The notes beneath the pieces are model-generated. The model was not told where the DNA came from. It saw nothing but the letters and a program-made list of their open reading frames with translations, and did no database searches. Positions 9,311 through 46,523 of a stretch of 48,569 bases of DNA are shown piece after piece (positions within the stretch are counted from its first letter, which is position 1; the number at the start of each line of letters is the position of its first letter). This DNA is from an uncultured Bacteroidales bacterium (lineage in GTDB: Bacteria; Bacteroidota; Bacteroidia; Bacteroidales; Dysgonomonadaceae), in assembly GCA_964293155.1 (NCBI GenBank), contig CAXYYA010000028.1:1-48569 (forward strand), given 5' to 3'. The position numbers and the translations under genes were made by a program.

Positions 9311-9490
9311 CGGGAACATCATTTTAAAATTAACGTGAGTTCAATACAAGAAAAGGCTCTTAATTGATTTATAATAAGGTAATAAGGTCTTTGTTCTATT
9401 TTAATTTAACTCTACTAAGGTTGCTTTTAAAAAATAAGGTTTCCAATACGCTTTGAACCCTGCCTACCGCAGGCAAGCTTATTTACAAAT

Positions 9491-9839
9491 ATGATTATCC
9501 GCATAATGTCCTACATCAATTGCCACGTCCCTTTACAGGCTGTGTAAAAAACATCGCAACAGTATCAATTTGTCATTCCGACGATAGGAGGAATCTTATT
9601 TGTCATAAATTATAGACTCTTCACTCCGCAAAGCTGCGTTCAGAGTGACAAAAAGACACCTAATTTTCATTTTTACACAGCCTCTTTAGGGCGTGGTTTT
9701 TGAGATACAGAGCAGATAGGCTTTAGCCGAAATTTATACTATTATTGGGCTGAAGCCCGTAATTCTTAGACATTATTATCCCACGACTTAAAAATCGTGG
9801 CAATAGATAAAGCCGTTAGGACACTTTGCGGATAATCAT
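9491..9839. mobile_element. MITE-like element of the outer family (TIR ATGATTATCCGC / GCGGATAATCAT) carrying a nested 148-bp insertion
   Basis: Terminal inverted repeats and subterminal hairpins (CCACGTCCC...GGGCGTGG, CCACGACTTAAAAATCGTGG). With the 9536-9683 insertion removed, it is near-identical in reverse complement to 46226-46420. Confidence 0.7.
9536..9683. mobile_element. Nested 148-bp MITE-like element of the inner family (TIR CAGGCTGTGTAAAAA...TTTTTACACAGCCT) with a 5-bp CTTTA target-site duplication
   Basis: Flanked by CTTTA at 9531-9535 and 9684-9688. The uninterrupted homologous site at 46226-46420 reads CCTTTAGGGCG. A second copy lies at 23143-23291. Confidence 0.65.
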
Positions 9840-9984
9840 TTTTACGAATAATATAACCTTAATAGGAATCAACGCAAGCAAAGTTTCAGCCTTATTAGCT
9901 TATTTACTGATTCTTATGAAATGAGTTGTGTCAAACTCACGTTAATTATTTCTTTCGCATTTTACACGGATTAGAACCGATAAT

Positions 9985-17703: not shown

Positions 17704-17744
17704 AGGGAAAAGGTCTGTACAACATTTGTTATAAAATTATTTTT

Positions 17745-17960
17745 ATGATTATCCGCAAAGTGTCCTAATATCAATTGCCACGGCTTTCAAGCCGTGGAAG
17801 GTATGAATTTAATTAAATTGGCTTTAGCCGAAATTTATGTAAACTTCCCGATTGCGGAATAAGTTGGGCTAAAGCCCATCTCATAGATACATCTAATTAT
17901 CCACGCCATAAATGGCGTGGCAATTGACACGGTTAATTAGGAAGGTTTGCGGATAATCAT
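17745..17960. mobile_element. MITE-like element, outer family, divergent variant (216 bp)
   Basis: Termini are ATGATTATCCGCAAAGTGTCCTAA...GCGGATAATCAT. The subterminal hairpins are CCACGGCTTTCAAGCCGTGG and CCACGCCATAAATGGCGTGG. The central GGCTTTAGCC/GGGCTAAAGCCC palindromes are shared with the other copies. Confidence 0.65.
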
Positions 17961-18455
17961 TATTATTTTAAACGCTAAGACGCCAAGCCGCTACGTTATT
18001 TTCTCATTTAAAAGAAAGCCTGTCTCTCAGATTATTAGTGAGGTGAAAAATAACTCTTTGCGCCTTCCCGTCTTTGCGCCTTTGCGTACATAAAACGCTT
18101 TTATATGCTGATGTGCGTTATTTTTTGATGAAATGTTGTTAGCGATGTAGTCCCTATAATTATCGGATCACTTCAAACAATGATAAATTGAAAAGATTAT
18201 CATGATTTTGATACAACTTCTTCAATTAACCATAAACTTAGAAACTGTTTTGAATTTTTTCTGACGATGTTTTTTATTCATTTTTTGATGGATTTGGATT
18301 CCTGCCTGCGGCAGGCGGGTTCGTTACGAATCAAATAGCGGGCTATTTGGAAGAAAGGAAAATTCAAAGACGCAAAAAAGGGCAAAAAACAGTCTGAAAG
18401 AATCAGAAAAATAGTTAAAAAACAAGATTCGTAAAATTCAAAACAGTTTCTTACA

Positions 18456-19553: not shown

Positions 19554-19578
19554 ATAAAAAATCCCGGGATTTTTTTAT
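19554..19578. terminator. Palindromic bidirectional terminator AAAAAATCCCGGGATTTTTTT between convergent genes
   Basis: Perfect palindrome with A-run and T-run flanks. Confidence 0.5.
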
Positions 19579-20090
19579 TACTGATTCTGTCCGTAATAAA
19601 CGTCCTTTTCTGTTTGCGGGATGAGGGTGGGAGAGTACTCAACCGGAGAAAGAACGTAACTGTCGCCGAAGATAACGCGTTCGTTCTCTCTGAACGTCAG
19701 TGTTGTGTCGTCCACCATCACAAACGCGCCGGAGCCTTCCAGCAGTTTATTGTTCTTCAACAGAAAGTATTTGTCAATGTTGGAAACAAATCCTTTGGAC
19801 ATGAACCGGTAAACGCCTTTCAGCGTATCGCCCGAAATAGTGCCTTTGTATTCGCCCTGCGAGTTTTCGGCGTTGCGTAGCTTATAGAACAAAAAGCCCT
19901 TAAAATTATCGCCGGTGCGTTCCAGTTCCAGTTTAACGGTGTCTCGTTTTATTGAACCTACGTAAGACAGATACTCCGTTTTCGGAGTTGTAAGCGCCGT
20001 GGAATCAACCGTTTGGGATGTTTCGCCTCCTTTTTTAGAGGTACACGAAACTGCCATCACAAGCGCAAGTGCGAAAAATAATTGTTTCAT
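19578..20090 (-). CDS. Lipoprotein of unknown function (tandem paralog 1)
   Basis: 170 aa with a lipoprotein signal (VSCTSK). Shares GDTLKGV..FMS.G..SN.DKYFL.K...LLEG with its neighbour. Confidence 0.6.
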   Translation of the reverse strand: MKQLFFALALVMAVSCTSKKGGETSQTVDSTALTTPKTEYLSYVGSIKRDTVKLELERTGDNFKGFLFYKLRNAENSQGEYKGTISGDTLKGVYRFMSKGFVSNIDKYFLLKNNKLLEGSGAFVMVDDTTLTFRENERVIFGDSYVLSPVEYSPTLIPQTEKDVYYGQNQ

Positions 20091-20134
20091 AAGATAAGGA
20101 AATGAAGTGGGTATAAAAAATGAGCTAAAGTTGG

Positions 20135-20659
20135 TTATTTGTTTGTTTTCAGCTTATAGTAGAACTCCCTGTTTTGGCGGGAAATAAATTCATCCGCGCA
20201 AGTTGCCGGTTGGAGGATATAACTTTCGCCGAACTTCACCCGAGCCGTATCGGTAAAAACCAGCGAAATGGAATCTTTTTCGGTGAGCGGGCCGATTCCT
20301 TCCAACAAGTTTCCGTCTTTCATCAGAAAGTATTTATCCACGTTGGATATCATTCCTTCCGACATAAAATTGAATACACCTTTCAGCGTATCGCCCGAAA
20401 CCTTGCCGTTGTATTCTCCGATGGAACTATCGCTCTCATAACGGTCGTAAAACAGAAATCCGTTGAAATCACTATCGGTGCGTTTCAGTTCCAGTCTCAC
20501 GGAATCCCGGTTTGCCGTTCCTAAAAAACAAAGTTTTTCCGTTGCCGGAACAAGTGTTGCCACCGAGTCGGTTTGAGCTGCGCTATTCCCGCTTTTGTTG
20601 TTGGTGCATGCCATCGCAAGCAATGCGATGCTTACCAGCGGCACAAAAAAATATTTCAT
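20135..20659 (-). CDS. Lipoprotein of unknown function (tandem paralog 2)
   Basis: 174 aa with a lipoprotein signal (LAMACTNNK). It aligns along its full length with the 19578-20090 product. Confidence 0.6.
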   Translation of the reverse strand: MKYFFVPLVSIALLAMACTNNKSGNSAAQTDSVATLVPATEKLCFLGTANRDSVRLELKRTDSDFNGFLFYDRYESDSSIGEYNGKVSGDTLKGVFNFMSEGMISNVDKYFLMKDGNLLEGIGPLTEKDSISLVFTDTARVKFGESYILQPATCADEFISRQNREFYYKLKTNK

Positions 20660-21661: not shown

Positions 21662-22987
21662 CTATCTTCTTCTCATATTTTTCATCATCGCTTTTCCGCC
21701 GCCGGTAGTCATCATACGCATCATTTTGCGGGTCTCGTCGAACTGTTTGAGCAGTTTGTTCACTTCCTGAACACTGGTTCCGCTTCCCAAAGCGATGCGT
21801 GCGCGGCGGCTGCCGTTCAGTATCTCGGGATTGGTGCGTTCTTTCGGCGTCATTGAGCGGATGATGGCTTCGATGCCTCTGAAAGCATCGTCGTCAATAT
21901 CCATATCTTTGATCTGTTTTCCAACACCGGGTATCATGGATGCCAAATCCTTGAGGTTACCCATTTTTTTGATTTGCTGGATTTGGGAAATGAAATCGTT
22001 GAAATCGAATTGATTTTTGGCGATCTTTTTCTGTAGGCGACGGGCTTCCTCTTCGTCGTATTGTTCCTGCGCTTTCTCAACCAGCGAAACAATGTCGCCC
22101 ATGCCGAGAATACGGTCGGCCATACGTTCGGGATGGAAAACATCAATCGCATCCAGCTTTTCGCCCGTTCCCACAAACTTAATAGGTTTGTTCACAACCG
22201 AGCGAATGGAAAGCGCGGCTCCGCCGCGGGTATCGCCGTCCAGCTTGGTAAGCACAACGCCGTTGAAATCGAGCCTGTCGTTAAATTCTTTTGCGGTGTT
22301 CACCGCATCCTGTCCGGTCATGGCATCCACAACGAAAAGGATTTCCTGCGGATTTACGGCATTCTTGATGGCGGTGATCTCGTTCATCATCTGCTCGTCA
22401 ATGGCCAGACGTCCTGCCGTGTCAATGATCACGAGGTCTTTACCGTGCTGACGGGCGTATTGAATGGCGTTTTGCGCGATCTTGACCGGATTTTTGTTCT
22501 CTTCTTCCGAATACACCGGCACGCCGATTTGCTCGCCCAGCACTTTCAACTGCTCAATGGCCGCAGGACGATATACGTCGCCGGCAACCAACAACGGATT
22601 TTTGCCGCGCTTGGATTTGAGCATGTTCGCCAGCTTTCCCGAAAACGTAGTTTTACCCGAACCTTGTAACCCCGACATCAGAATAATCGCCGGATTGCCC
22701 TTGATGTTAATATCGGTGGCGGTACCGCCCATGAGGGTTGCCAACTCGTCGTGGACGATCTTAACCATCAACTGGTCGGGTTTCACGGCGGTAAGCACGT
22801 CTTGCCCCATCGCTTTCTCCTTGACGGTTTCGGTGAAATCTTTGGCAGTTTTATAGTTCACGTCGGCATCGAGCAACGCGCGGCGCACTTCTTTTAGCGT
22901 AGAAGCAACGTTAATTTCGGTGATTCTTCCTTCACCTTTCAGTATCTTGAACGACCTTTCGAGCCTGTCACTTAAATTTTCAAACAT
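21662..22987 (-). CDS. ffh: Signal recognition particle protein Ffh
   Basis: 441 aa. The N/G domain carries GLQGSGKTT and the Met-rich M domain ends [10 protein letters not shown]. Confidence 0.95.
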
Positions 22988-23142
22988 CGTAATTTATCCT
23001 ATATTTTTATTGGGCTACAAAGATAGTGAAAATGCTTTATTTGGCAAAGACGTAAAGTTTATCCGCAATGTTTCGAGGCTGAGAATTTTCAGTAGTCATG
23101 GCTAAAGCCGGTGTTCACGTTTGCTGGGTTCTCCGCTTTAAA

Positions 23143-23291
23143 CAGGCTGTGTAAGAAACATCGCAACAGTATCATTTTGTCATTCCGACGATAGGAGGAA
23201 TCTTTATTTGTCATAAATTATAAACTCTTCACTCCGCAAAGCTGCGTTCAGAGTGACAAAAAGACACCTAATTTTCATTTTTACACAGCCT
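23143..23291. mobile_element. Second copy of the inner-family MITE, 149 bp and about 97 percent identical to 9536-9683
   Basis: Same TIRs and internal sequence. It is flanked by TTAAA/CTAAA. An isolated outer-family terminus, ATTGCGGATAATCA, lies at 23316-23329. Confidence 0.6.
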
Positions 23292-23850
23292 CTAAAAGCA
23301 GGGTTATTAAGACGTATTGCGGATAATCAAAAAAATGACTATTTTTGTGAACGGGAAAAACATTTGTAAATGCCCATTAATTTGGTTGATTATTAAATCG
23401 CATAAATGAAGATGTTGGCAACGATTTGTAAATGTAAACTACAAAAATTTGGTAAATGGACAAGATTTGGTTAATAACAATAGCAACTGCAATTTTTTTG
23501 ATCATAAATTTTCTTTTTTATAAAACGCTCAACGTGTATTACAAAGAGGAATTTGGCAAAAAGACGTGAAAATTAGGAGGAGGGAGAATATACTTTTGGC
23601 AGGCATCAATAATTGTCAGCACAATAGGTGCGTTGATAGCAATTTATTTTTTAAAATAGTAAACGTTCATCACACCCTTCCCGCTTACGCGGATTTCTCG
23701 TCATAACGAGCGCACAGGTTCGAGCGGTAATCGGTGTGTGCCGCAGGCAAGAGTTTACTTCGTAACACACGCTTTGCAAAAGCGCGCGAGCACAAGCGGG
23801 ACACGAAGTTTGTAACTTCGTGAACGAAGGCACAGCCATCGTCTCCCAAT

Positions 23851-23893
23851 AAAAAAATCCGCCAAACGCTTCATCGCTTGGCGGATTTTTTAT
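23851..23893. terminator. Bidirectional intrinsic terminator
   Basis: AAAAAAATCCGCCAA-ACGCTTCATCGC-TTGGCGGATTTTTTA. It lies directly after the stop of the 23913-24743 minus-strand gene, and the plus-strand side also carries a T-run. Confidence 0.6.
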
Positions 23894-23912
23894 ACAGTTG
23901 ATCTTTAAATTT

Positions 23913-24743
23913 CTACAAAGGTATTAAGTAAAATGCCGACACGGAAAACCCTGAACTTACTTTATAATCGGCAGCGCTATCTTTCGTAAACGGGAAATTG
24001 AGCGAATATCCAAATTGCAGCTCAAAATTGCCCAAATTTACACTCAAGGGGAGAAACAGCTGGACGTTTAACAAGCCGAATACTTCCTCGGGAGTGGTTG
24101 CAAGGTTTATGGTTTCTTTGGCAAAATAGCCCGAAATTTCAGGGCCGAAATAAAAACGGTTGTTTTTCCCAAAATCTAAAAAATAAAAACCGGCAAAAAC
24201 GCTCGGACTGAGCGTATAGAATGTCTGACTCCCGAAAAGCAAATTGTTGGAGATACGTGCTCCATACCAGTCTTTTCGGTACGAAAGCGTTAAGTTGGCA
24301 TTGTTTTCATAGGGATAAATGGCTGTGGTGTCGGAATTGTAAATGAGACGGCTGTATGAACCGCTGGCTCTGAAGTGCTTGCTTTTATCCAGGTAAAGGC
24401 CGTATCCAAGCGTCAGCATTGTTGTGGTGTAGCCGGGCGAAAGCTGGTCGTACCATATTCCGGATGCTCCTGCAAAGAGTCCGTATTTGCTGAAATAATA
24501 AACGTGACCACTTACATTCGCTAAGTCGGTACCGATTTCTCTGCCTGCAAAGAACGTTTTATTATTGTAATTAAGGCCTGCGTACAAAAAGTCTTTCTTT
24601 TCACTAATTATTTCAGACAATAAAGTTTCATCACTAAATATCAAATCATTTAGTAATGAGTCAATTCTATCGGTTTGAGCGGCGGCTGAAATACCGTATA
24701 GAAGGAACAATATAAAGAATGCTTTTTTCATATGTTTATTCAT
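23913..24743 (-). CDS. Secreted, probably outer-membrane protein of unknown function
   Basis: 276 aa with a signal peptide (FFILFLLYGISAAAQ). The composition is aromatic/Gly-rich and beta-strand-like. Confidence 0.5.
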   Translation of the reverse strand: MNKHMKKAFFILFLLYGISAAAQTDRIDSLLNDLIFSDETLLSEIISEKKDFLYAGLNYNNKTFFAGREIGTDLANVSGHVYYFSKYGLFAGASGIWYDQLSPGYTTTMLTLGYGLYLDKSKHFRASGSYSRLIYNSDTTAIYPYENNANLTLSYRKDWYGARISNNLLFGSQTFYTLSPSVFAGFYFLDFGKNNRFYFGPEISGYFAKETINLATTPEEVFGLLNVQLFLPLSVNLGNFELQFGYSLNFPFTKDSAADYKVSSGFSVSAFYLIPL

Positions 24744-34719: not shown

Positions 34720-35328
34720 TTACGGTTGTACGATATCGGAGAACTGTGACAAATTTAATACTTTTGGTTGATAATCAATGCCTCTGCGCGATAAATTTCG
34801 TACAAACGCCCGCAAATGGTTCTCCGAAGCGCGCAAGAGGTTGGAATAAATCCGTTGGATATCGGGATTGTCGGTTTTCTGCAAGTGCGATTGCAGGTCT
34901 TCGATATCCTGTTCTTCGATCAACGCTCCGGCTTGCAGCGCCTCGATGAGCGTTGTGCCTTTGGTGAGCTCGGTGTACATTTTCTGTAACTCACGATTGG
35001 TAAACACGCCTTCCGCTTTCGCGAGGTCTTTTAACCCATACGTATCCACAAGCCACATCATGGCGTTCTGGTGCACCGTTTCGCTACGCGAAATATTTCG
35101 GAAGATAGGGATGCTATACTGCCGGGCGTAAAACGTATAAACGTCGTGGGCAAGTTTTTCTTCTTCGCGCATGTACTCAATGCTTTGGATGTCGGCCTTC
35201 GTCAGATTTTGCGTTGAAGCCGGTATTCCCATCGTCTTATTCTGTGTGGTTTTAGCCCCATCGGCAGCTTGGGGCAACAAAAGTATTGCCCCTGCCGCGA
35301 TCAGAATGAATAAATATTTTGTTTTCAT
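34720..35328 (-). CDS. Exported DUF2202-like (ferritin-like superfamily) protein, paralog 1
   Basis: 202 aa with a signal peptide. YMREEEKLAHDVY...SETVHQNAM...LRASENHLRAF is a ferritin-like four-helix pattern of E/H ligands. Confidence 0.6.
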   Translation of the reverse strand: MKTKYLFILIAAGAILLLPQAADGAKTTQNKTMGIPASTQNLTKADIQSIEYMREEEKLAHDVYTFYARQYSIPIFRNISRSETVHQNAMMWLVDTYGLKDLAKAEGVFTNRELQKMYTELTKGTTLIEALQAGALIEEQDIEDLQSHLQKTDNPDIQRIYSNLLRASENHLRAFVRNLSRRGIDYQPKVLNLSQFSDIVQP

Positions 35329-35332
35329 TTTT

Positions 35333-36025
35333 TTATGTGTTTATGATAGCGTTGAAATCATCGTTGCTCAATAATTGAGGTTGATATGCAATACCGTTGA
35401 ATTTGAGATTTGCGACAAAGGCTTTCAAATGAAACTGTGAAGCACGGAGTAGATTACCGTAAATTCTTTTGATAAACGGGTTTTCTGTTTCGGCTATTTC
35501 TCTTTGAAGATCAATAATATCGTGTTCTTCGATAAAAGCGCCGGCTTTGTAAGCATCTACAACTGTAAGGGCTTCGGTTGTAAGCTTTGTGTATAAATTT
35601 TGCAATTCTTCGATGTTAAATACCCCCGGTACCGTTTCGGCGGGAGTCTCAATTTTGTAGAGATTAATAAGCCAGGCGATAGCTTTTCCGTGTGCTATCT
35701 CGCTTTTGGAGATGTTGCTGAACACGGGTCTGGCGAATTTTTCGTTAAAATACACATACACATTATTGGCTAATTTTTCTTCTTCGCGCATGTACAGGAT
35801 GCTGTTTATTTCACTTTCGGTGAGTGGCGCGAGTTGCGTATTTGTCAACAAACAAAGCGAATCGGTGGTTGCAGCCAGTGTTGCATCAAGTCGCGTAGTT
35901 GAAACTGCGTTTATCAATGCGGCTTGTTCGGCATTTTCTTCCGGTGAATTTACGCTGTTCGCTTCACAACCGAAAAGCAAAATTGCAAGAAATGCCACGA
36001 CGGAAATTTTTTGATAAGTTTTCAT
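35333..36025 (-). CDS. Exported DUF2202-like (ferritin-like) lipoprotein, paralog 2
   Basis: 230 aa with a lipoprotein signal (LLFGCE). YMREEEKLANNVY...SEIAHGKAI...LRASQFHLKAF parallels the neighbour. It lies 4 bp upstream of paralog 1. Confidence 0.6.
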   Translation of the reverse strand: MKTYQKISVVAFLAILLFGCEANSVNSPEENAEQAALINAVSTTRLDATLAATTDSLCLLTNTQLAPLTESEINSILYMREEEKLANNVYVYFNEKFARPVFSNISKSEIAHGKAIAWLINLYKIETPAETVPGVFNIEELQNLYTKLTTEALTVVDAYKAGAFIEEHDIIDLQREIAETENPFIKRIYGNLLRASQFHLKAFVANLKFNGIAYQPQLLSNDDFNAIINT

Positions 36026-36079: not shown

Positions 36080-36109
36080 AAAAATGGGGAGCGAATCCCC
36101 ATTTTTTTG
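36080..36109. terminator. Intrinsic terminator after the EF-hand-repeat gene
   Basis: AAAAAATGGGGA-GCGAA-TCCCCATTTTTTT. Confidence 0.6.
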
Positions 36110-36123
36110 TGGTTGGTGCGTGG

Positions 36124-36687
36124 TTATTTTGTGGTTTCCCTACGGTCGCAAATACCGTTTTTATTGGCGTCCACAAAATTTACCGCACTGCCTTTTCCAT
36201 TCCGAAGGCCGGTGCCTTTCCCTGTACCGCGTCCCTGGCGCGGTGTTCCGTTTTCGAAGTTGTCACAAATGCCGTCTTTGTCGGCATCTACGAAATTTGC
36301 TCCACCACCTCTGCCGTTACGCAGTCCGTTGCCATAGCCTTGTCCGCGTCCTCCACGGGGAGTTCCGTTTTCGAAATTGTCGCACACGCCATCTTTATCG
36401 GCATCCACAAAGAAGCGTCCTTGTCCTCTGCCGTTGCGTAATCCCTGGCCTTTGCCTTGTCCGCGGCCGCTACCGTCGAGCAGTCGTTGTTTGCCGTTGG
36501 CATTCGGATTTCCGGGTGTTCCGTTCTCGAAATTATCGCAAACGCCGTTGTTGTTTTTGTCCACAAATGCAGGTCCGGTTTGAGCGGTTTTCGCCGTTTC
36601 CTTTGCTGCCTGATTTTGATTTTGGGCGGTTGCTAATCCTATGGTGGCAACCAGCGCCATTGCAGTGATAAATACTTTTGTTTTCAT
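36124..36687 (-). CDS. Secreted protein with four canonical EF-hand calcium-binding loops separated by Gly/Arg-rich linkers
   Basis: 187 aa with a signal peptide. There are four repeats FVD(A/K)(D/N)K(D/N)G(V/I)CDNFENGTP, and each matches the EF-loop D-x-D-x-D-G-x-x-D-x-x-E and contains one Cys. The linkers are GRGQGKGQGLRNGRGQG. Confidence 0.6.
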   Translation of the reverse strand: MKTKVFITAMALVATIGLATAQNQNQAAKETAKTAQTGPAFVDKNNNGVCDNFENGTPGNPNANGKQRLLDGSGRGQGKGQGLRNGRGQGRFFVDADKDGVCDNFENGTPRGGRGQGYGNGLRNGRGGGANFVDADKDGICDNFENGTPRQGRGTGKGTGLRNGKGSAVNFVDANKNGICDRRETTK

Positions 36688-46225: not shown

Positions 46226-46420
46226 ACATTATCCGCGAAGTGTTCTAACGGCTTTATCCATTGCCACGACTTTTAAGTCGTGGGATAATGATGTCTAAGA
46301 ATTACGGGCTTTAGCCCAATAATAGTATAAATTTCGGCTAAAGCCTATCTGCTCTGTATCTCAAAAACCACGCCCTAAAGGGACGTGGCAATTGATGTAG
46401 GACATTATACGGATAATCAT
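46226..46420. mobile_element. MITE-like element, outer family, intact copy (195 bp) lacking the nested insert
   Basis: It is the reverse complement of 9491-9839 minus the insert at 9536-9683. One terminus is degenerate (ACATTATCCGC). Confidence 0.7.
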
Positions 46421-46523
46421 ATTAAATTATTATTCATGTCATTTCCTCTTTATGCCCAATTTTGGGTGGGGACGTGACAAGATGAAACTGTTCTTGCTCT
46501 TTTGATACTGCCTCTTTTATTGT

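Follow-up and report, generated by a model that had tools for sequence, protein, structure and literature searches.

A small repeat with IS1182-family ends that probably inserts at hairpin centres, nested within another MITE family in a Dysgonomonadaceae bacterium

The 48,569-nucleotide contig of an uncultured Bacteroidales bacterium of the Dysgonomonadaceae that we analysed over its full length (the window; CAXYYA010000028.1, assembly GCA_964293155.1) carries two copies of a short repeat, here called the inner element, and one of these, copy B, lies close to a terminus of a second repeat family, here called the outer family. A reading made from the sequence alone had proposed either that the inner element preferentially targets outer-family sequence, or that an outer copy at this site had been degraded and had left an orphan terminus behind. 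The locus thus raises the question of whether the inner element does prefer outer-family DNA and, if it does, what it finds there.

The second, near-identical copy that had been claimed is borne out by alignment: copies A and B (Table 1) are separated by three substitutions and one one-base indel, and within the window their likeness breaks off abruptly at either boundary. The terminal inverted repeats of copy B occupy 23143-23158 and 23277-23292, the C at 23292 being its final base. The repeat has the form (C/G)AGGCTGTGTAAAAA, or C-AGGCTGTGTAAAAAAC when the inner element is written with its terminal base, and the core AGGCTGTGTAAAAA is present four times in the window against an expectation of 0.57. 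Every ORF in the element is of 41 aa or fewer and reads out into flanking DNA, and the one-base indel changes the reading frame between copies A and B. With its length of 149-150 bp, multiple copies, presence/absence polymorphism and no transposase gene, the inner element has the features of a miniature inverted-repeat transposable element (MITE). The copies found in the species are the two in the window and one at a further locus, seen in two other samples (contigs L002 and L003). Short-read contigs of the same species break 32-34 nt into the inner element, which is the pattern expected of a multi-copy repeat. An exact 28-mer from the element, with two positions left free, gave no match in genome, metagenome and viral contig collections, and a search of the literature for the terminal sequences as text returned no match.

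Table 1. Positions of the inner and outer repeat features in the window.
Feature	Position	Strand	Details
Inner MITE copy A	9536..9684	+	149 bp; flanked by TTTA at 9532-9535 and 9685-9688
Inner MITE copy B	23143..23292	+	150 bp; 97% identity to 9536-9684; terminal inverted repeat matches
Left target-site duplication, copy B	23139..23142		TAAA, read directly
Right target-site duplication, copy B	23293..23296		TAAA, read directly; empty site in L001 is CTCTTTAAAAAGCGGAG
Left arm of the short outer element hosting copy B	23054..23138		terminus TTATCCGCAAT at 23059-23069, GGCTAAAGCC hairpin, 5' half of target hairpin
Right arm of copy B's host element	23297..23331		3' half of target hairpin and terminus ATTGCGGATAATCA at 23316-23329
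Outer element 1	9490..9840	+	198 bp without the inner insertion; hosts copy A; 8-bp duplication TTTACAAA at 9482-9489 / TTTACGAA at 9841-9848
Outer element 2	17744..17961	+	218 bp, no inner insertion; perfect 8-bp duplication ATTATTTT at 17736-17743 and 17962-17969
Outer element 3	46228..46423	-	96% identical to element 1; unoccupied TTTA loop at 46376-46379

The outer family is represented by four copies in 48.6 kb, namely elements 1-3 and the host of copy B (23054-23331). Its terminal inverted repeats (TATGATTATCCGCAAAGTGTCCTAA) extend over at least 24 nt, each end has a subterminal hairpin, CCACG...CGTGG, whose loop is AT-rich, and the small hairpins GGCTTTAGCC and GGGCTAAAGCCC are found inside the elements; the short-stem TTTA and TAAA loops of the interior are empty in all four copies. 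The 8-bp repeats that flank the elements agree at 8/8 positions for element 2 and at 7/8 for element 1. Given these termini, hairpins and 8-bp direct repeats, together with several diverged copies and no coding capacity, the outer family has the appearance of an older MITE, unrelated to the inner element, that duplicates 8 bp of its target. IS200/IS605-type or REP-like hairpin elements were considered for both families and rejected in view of the clear terminal inverted repeats and direct duplications. We found no empty site for any outer copy, the element 2 locus being compared with the same strain only (99.9% identical), and the outer terminus pattern had no match in viral contigs. We compared both families by blastn with related Bacteroidales (80 loci, 1.4 Mb in all, the relative with 95% Ffh identity among them) and found neither; both appear to be lineage-specific. 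The window had no Rfam match at gathering score, with sub-threshold matches only at 22900-23950, and no tRNA genes were found in it.

The outer-family terminus that had been reported downstream of copy B, ATTGCGGATAATCA, is indeed present, 24 nt beyond the copy. At this site 29 nt are 79% identical to the right end of an outer copy (17931-17959) and 32 nt are 84% complementary to the left end of the outer copy at 17744-17961, which excludes the chance 11-mer match that the sequence-only reading had named as part of its own refutation. For the motif TTATCCGCAWW, 0.21 occurrences would be expected in the window; there are seven, of which all but one fall into three inverted pairs at a spacing of 200-340 bp. 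The inverted partner of the ATTGCGGATAATCA terminus is the 11-mer TTATCCGCAAT in the left arm, and copy B therefore lies inside a short outer-family element with both ends, at about 23054-23331. We rebuilt this host by taking the inner element and one copy of the duplication out of 23054-23331, and the result aligns with the outer family from one terminus over the subterminal and GGCTTTAGCC hairpins to the other terminus; the statement that no intact outer element surrounds the terminus thus does not hold. Because an outer element has at one end the inverted copy of the other, copy B can be read in either orientation with respect to its host. The closest named relative (L054) loses its homology to the window at 23047, just outside the host.

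Empty sites show that the insertions of copies A and B, into two outer elements that have diverged, were recent and separate. The empty form for copy A is outer element 3, in which the insert is absent; the alignment blocks of elements 1 and 3 overlap by 5 nt, CTTTA, centred on TTTA. The empty site for copy B is in contig L001, which has no insert, a host element 91.6% identical to that of the window and an ffh gene that differs from the window's at 17 of 1326 nt; the orthologous site lies in the context GTTCTCCTC-TTTAAAAA-GCGGAG. The third insertion, that of L002/L003, is upstream of the same ffh gene in a different outer-type element, where a left end of the inner family (94% identical over 34 nt) abuts CCACGCCCTAAAG in the context CCACGCCC-TAAAG. 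On the corresponding side of the same hairpin type the right inner end is found at copy A and the left inner end at L002/L003, so that this loop has received at least two insertions of opposite orientation. All three independent insertions seen in the species lie at most 1 nt from the AT-rich loop of a subterminal outer-family hairpin.

We scanned metagenomes with a pattern of the two inner ends, leaving the interior free, and obtained at least 120 loci (L096-L215). The matches listed include 91 symmetric elements of the form AGRCTGTGTAA...TTACACAGYCT, with a modal length of 136-138 bp and unrelated interiors. With the element bounds set as one base, the conserved core and one base, an exact 4-bp direct repeat flanks 54 of the 88 distinct copies from the metagenome matches listed and from the window, compared with 11/88 when partners were shuffled and at most 6/88 at lengths of 2, 3, 5 or 6; about one third of the listed relatives are without an exact 4-bp repeat, and a few (L142, L161, L177, L192, L196) have reverse-complement 4-mers. 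The non-palindromic 4-mers GGTC, GACC, GCGA, TCGC, TGAT, TTTA and TAAA are repeated directly, not inverted, and are therefore duplications, not extensions of the inverted repeat. The 4-bp duplication of IS1182-type MITEs is accordingly seen in the window (TTTA and TAAA), in the empty sites and in these listed relatives. The flanks TTAAA/CTAAA, which had been taken to indicate a TTA-like target at copy B, resolve into a perfect 4-bp duplication, TAAA, and the C that closes the element. Duplication of 5 bp (CTTTA; TTAAA/CTAAA) was dropped as a candidate, the family-wide 4-bp signal with a terminal G/C base providing the better fit.

The ends (G/C)AGGCTGTGTAAAAAC, palindromic flanks and duplication of 4 bp are features that the widespread MITEs of about 137 bp share with 1.68-kb IS1182-family elements. 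One such element (L156 8487-10168) is bounded by C-AGGCTGTGTAAAAAC / GTTTTTACACGGCCT-G and flanked by a GGCC duplication. It encodes a 514-aa transposase that is intact, reaches 462.7 bits against the NCBIfam model NF033551 "IS1182 family transposase" (cut-off 270) and is 74% identical to "IS1182-like element ISPa7 family transposase" proteins on Pseudomonas plasmids. A decayed copy with the same ends (L195 140-1818) contains three ORFs matching NF033551 as well as Pfam DUF772 and DDE_Tnp_1, and a further, partial copy of an IS1182-family element lies at about 13130-14584 of L139. ISPa7 itself, on plasmid pXWY, has the end C-AGACCGTGTAAAAAC, a close variant, with GGCC on both flanks. The interior of the inner element is unrelated to those of the metagenome MITEs, the match consisting of 15 terminal nt, and up to 29 nt at one end. 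Given that the AGGCTGTGTAAAAAC ends occur on L156 and L195 and AGACCGTGTAAAAAC on ISPa7, the inner element carries IS1182-family ends, and on sequence grounds it is a new, lineage-specific IS1182-family MITE, nested in another MITE, of a kind already known. An IS1182-type transposase was found neither in the window nor in the same-species contigs that we fetched, so we infer mobilization in trans; the same material yielded no partner element with the inner ends in this lineage. On pXWY (Pseudomonas sp. XWY-1, NZ_CP026333.1 323395-325646; L221), ISPa7 adjoins the class 1 integron integrase gene intI1, and its GGCC lies inside the imperfect palindrome GCTGATGGCC-GGCCGGCAGC, matching the target pattern of the metagenome relatives.

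The target of copy A is the hairpin CCACGTCCC-TTTA-GGGCGTGG, with TTTA as its loop; this hairpin, of the type hit also in L002, folds at -9.2 kcal/mol (z = -4.8). The rebuilt target of copy B is weak (-3.0 kcal/mol, z = -0.3, with 76 of 200 shuffles folding as well), and the case for a hairpin there therefore rests on position in the outer element, not on folding energy. The window targets are bulged, and are missed by a count of perfect-stem hairpins with 4-nt AT loops. Among the listed relatives, complementarity of the flanks is 5.76/12, against 4.55 with partners swapped and 3.19 when shuffled, and the folding energy of the rebuilt empty sites is -11.96 kcal/mol, compared with -9.60 for shuffled sequence (best of 50, -10.78) and -8.74 for nearby DNA. 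The flanks in GC-rich hosts take the form GTCCGC-N4-GGCC-N4-GCGGAC; those in AT-rich hosts include CCCC-TTTA-GGGG, CCCCGATA-TTTA-TATCGGGG, CCGTCGGT-TAAA-ACCGACGG and GGCGGCC-TGAT-GGTCGCC, and one metagenome insertion (L201) is in a terminator-like hairpin followed by a T run. The GTCCGC-N4-GGCC-N4-GCGGAC flank recurs in many soil and sediment contigs and could be a REP-like host repeat.

The outer family accounts for about 1.5% of the window and, counted from the ORF list, for about 13% of its roughly 5.7 kb of intergenic DNA, and the probability that three of three insertions would fall in outer DNA is about 0.002 under uniform intergenic insertion. This enrichment, the position of all three insertions at outer hairpin loops and the empty sites support the preferential landing in outer-family sequence that had been proposed from the sequence alone. 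The inner element thus favours outer DNA, most likely for its hairpins with AT-rich loops. Given that relatives with IS1182 ends insert at palindrome or hairpin centres in many hosts, the outer family would act as a hairpin supply, not as a sequence address, and by analogy with those relatives the cause is likely to be broader than had been supposed, a hairpin habit and not a specific sequence address. With only three insertions in the species, "any hairpin" is inseparable here from "outer-family hairpin", for instance as against terminators, and it is the evidence from relatives that favours "palindrome centre" as the general rule.

Other accounts of the association have to be set against these data. 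The terminus near copy B might have no element around it, being a chance match or what is left of a degraded outer copy, and the host is in fact short (124 bp, against 198-218 bp for the other outer copies), its left terminus agrees with the consensus at only 15 of 25 positions, and no clear 8-bp duplication was found at its flanks. However, an exact inverted 11-mer of a motif expected 0.21 times per window lies 257 nt off, the host aligns with the family from one terminus through hairpin and GGCTTTAGCC to the other, and L001 has the same short element, so that we hold this account to be quite unlikely. The term "orphan" is thereby largely refuted for the terminus, while "shortened derivative" is still true of the host; what survives of the degraded outer copy is its shortness, and what does not is the lone end, both termini being present. 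A second possibility is association by descent, in which outer and inner sequences were copied as one unit after a single insertion event and no target preference was involved. This would explain why the two window copies are placed alike in the architecture of their outer hosts, each in a subterminal hairpin loop, but the inner copies are 97% identical while their hosts scarcely align beyond the termini, and the L002 element is reversed in the same hairpin type. Moreover, a host 96% identical to that of copy A is empty, as is the orthologous L001 locus for copy B, and unless these empty sites are precise excisions they already contradict common descent, which we regard as extremely improbable.

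The preference could also reflect a short motif, for example C-TTTA-R, that is recognized in place of the hairpin and happens to be frequent in the outer family. The target of copy B folds no better than chance, the duplicated 4-mers of AT-rich hosts are mainly TTTA or TAAA, and the GGCTTTAGCC and GGGCTAAAGCCC hairpins show that the motif is common in outer elements, all of which would fit. Against this, the 4-mer varies with the host (GGCC, GGTC, GACC, GCGA, TCGC, TGAT, TTTA) while the symmetry of the flanks is kept throughout, the internal short-stem TTTA/TAAA loops are empty in every outer copy, and the published targets of IS1272 and TnSha1 are alike in structure, not in sequence (PMC4923244, PMC5678879). 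We judge recognition of a motif to be unlikely. Coincidence, by which the element inserts anywhere in AT-rich intergenic DNA and outer elements are merely common there, draws on the share of about 13% that outer DNA holds of the roughly 5.7 kb of intergenic DNA and on the small number of insertions, just two in the window and one elsewhere. It is very unlikely in view of the probability of about 0.002 for three of three, the location of all three at most 1 nt from the loop of one hairpin type, and the palindrome centres at which relatives are likewise found in other hosts.

In its ends and its duplication length, and probably in its target habit, the inner element matches the IS1182 family. 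Elements of another family have a comparable habit: IS1397 and ISKpn1, of the IS3 family, among other insertion sequences, insert in the loops of REP/BIME palindromes with a 3-4 bp duplication and so give rise to nested repeats. They would be functional analogues, in that a mobile element occupies the palindrome loop of another repeat family, but they differ in transposase family and ends, and the host repeat here is a MITE with terminal inverted repeats and an 8-bp duplication, not a REP. The terminal repeats of about 16 nt are like those of the ISPa7/ISPmo1 type, C-AGGCTGTGTAAAAAAC in the inner element corresponding to C-AGACCGTGTAAAAAC in ISPa7. The 4-bp duplication is shared with ISPse1, an experimentally captured member of the IS1182 family with 16-bp inverted repeats and a 4-bp duplication (PMC3281130), and with MITEPye1 of Paracoccus yeei, an IS1182-type MITE for which 18-bp ends and 4-bp duplications are described (PMC11578231). 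Like MITEPye1, which we compared by its description only, the inner element is MITE-sized and non-coding. Unlike ISPa7 and MITEPye1, it resides in a Bacteroidales bacterium and has an unrelated interior sequence, and its terminal base pair is C...C where G...C or C...G is usual.

That some IS1182 members target palindromes was stated in a 2015 review by Siguier and colleagues, as it is cited in PMC4923244 and PMC5678879. In staphylococci, the IS1182-family element IS1272 and TnSha1, which derives from it, use hairpins of differing sequence as targets and have hit the same hairpin repeatedly, independently and in both orientations (PMC4923244, PMC5678879); similarly, copy A and the L002 copy are in a CCACG..CGTGG hairpin in both orientations. 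IS1272 reportedly deletes or replaces its target hairpin, TnSha1 likewise removing part of it, and neither leaves a duplication (PMC4923244, PMC5678879), whereas the inner insertions keep the stem on both sides and duplicate the 4-nt loop, and the mode in which inverted repeats are replaced was not encountered. Such a loop-duplicating insertion is that of the hypothetical "loop only" pathway c in Fig. 13 of PMC5678879.

We therefore consider it probable that the inner element is an IS1182-ended, non-autonomous MITE that inserts at palindrome or hairpin centres, here those of the subterminal hairpins of the outer MITE, with copies A and B as separate and recent events. An IS1182-type DDE transposase encoded elsewhere in the genome would move it, and the partner element can be pictured as an IS1182-family transposase gene bounded by CAGGCTGTGTAAAAAAC ends. 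The inner element would integrate with duplication of 4 bp of the target, landing at the centre of a palindrome or hairpin, presumably with the hairpin itself being recognized and not outer-family sequence as such, and the handiest sites in this Dysgonomonadaceae bacterium would be the AT-loop subterminal hairpins of an older, unrelated MITE. It is conceivable, although we advance this only tentatively, that the (G/C)AGGCTGTGTAAAAAC group as a whole, full insertion sequences and MITEs of about 137 bp alike and in GC-rich as well as AT-rich hosts, integrates by DNA structure, its transposase cutting symmetrically round the four central bases of a cruciform or hairpin and so duplicating the loop exactly, and that hairpin-rich repeats serve as harmless landing pads for its multiplication. 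Were this true, it would be the conservative counterpart of the hairpin-deleting mode of IS1272.

The locus offers a clean natural example of a MITE nesting in a MITE, with filled sites, empty sites and a hit in the opposite orientation, in which the nesting is attributed to the hairpin preference of a transposase family, not to affinity for a particular repeat. A by-product is perhaps more useful, namely the set of MITEs of about 137 bp and full-length IS1182 elements that have one terminal sequence, a 4-bp duplication and palindromic targets in common, and with which a biochemist could test whether a DDE transposase chooses its targets by structure. For the annotation of Dysgonomonadaceae, two lineage-specific repeat families are defined that break short-read assemblies.

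From copy B, which is outside the stretch conserved with relatives, it is about 155 bp downstream to the ffh start codon, and nothing suggests a regulatory role or a cellular function for this copy. With 95% identity to the Ffh of a "Bacteroidetes bacterium" MAG, 91-93% to those of Proteiniphilum and 92% to that of Fermentimonas, the Ffh protein assigns the window to the Dysgonomonadaceae, Bacteroidales. L002/L003 (positions 1-242, compared with the window from 23035 onward) belong to strains with an identical Ffh protein and have wholly different DNA from about 47 bp upstream of the ffh start, and the region upstream of ffh seems to be a hot spot for these repeats. In L001 (positions 1-42, equivalent to the window from 23314 onward), similarity to the host element is lost directly after TTATTAAGACG; the contig runs on as GGACTACTGACAACTAAATAGGG... 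where the ATTGCGGATAATCA terminus is expected and ends 36 nt later. Sequence of the GGACTACTGACAACTAAATAGGG type was not found in the window, and the break after TTATTAAGACG may mark where a further repeat has inserted into the terminus.

A minus-strand segment at window 23640-23840, between copy B and the 276-aa gene, has a GC content of 51-56%, against 28-36% around it, and many hairpins. Four same-species contigs (L005, L006, L008 and L010) end at different points within it, L008 also diverging there, which hints at a further repeat or a variable stretch. Its folding energy is -66 kcal/mol (z = -2.2), and it matches no Rfam family. Immediately behind the 276-aa gene, at window 23849-23894, is a strong hairpin, perfect and long (AAAAAATCCGCCAAGCG...CGTTTGGCGGATTTTTTT) with A and T runs alongside, which is unoccupied by the inner element and looks like a bidirectional terminator. 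Elsewhere in the window, an imperfect 117-bp tandem repeat at 36145-36560 (TRF 36245-36465, 1.9 copies, 78% matches; up to three units by a repeat finder) lies within overlapping ORFs at 36084-36687 and probably encodes a repetitive protein. Adjacent paralogous pairs are found at 19578-20659 and 34720-36025, with a direct repeat of 74% over 132 nt in the pair of 170-aa and 174-aa ORFs and direct repeats of 73-77% in the pair of 202-aa and 230-aa ORFs.
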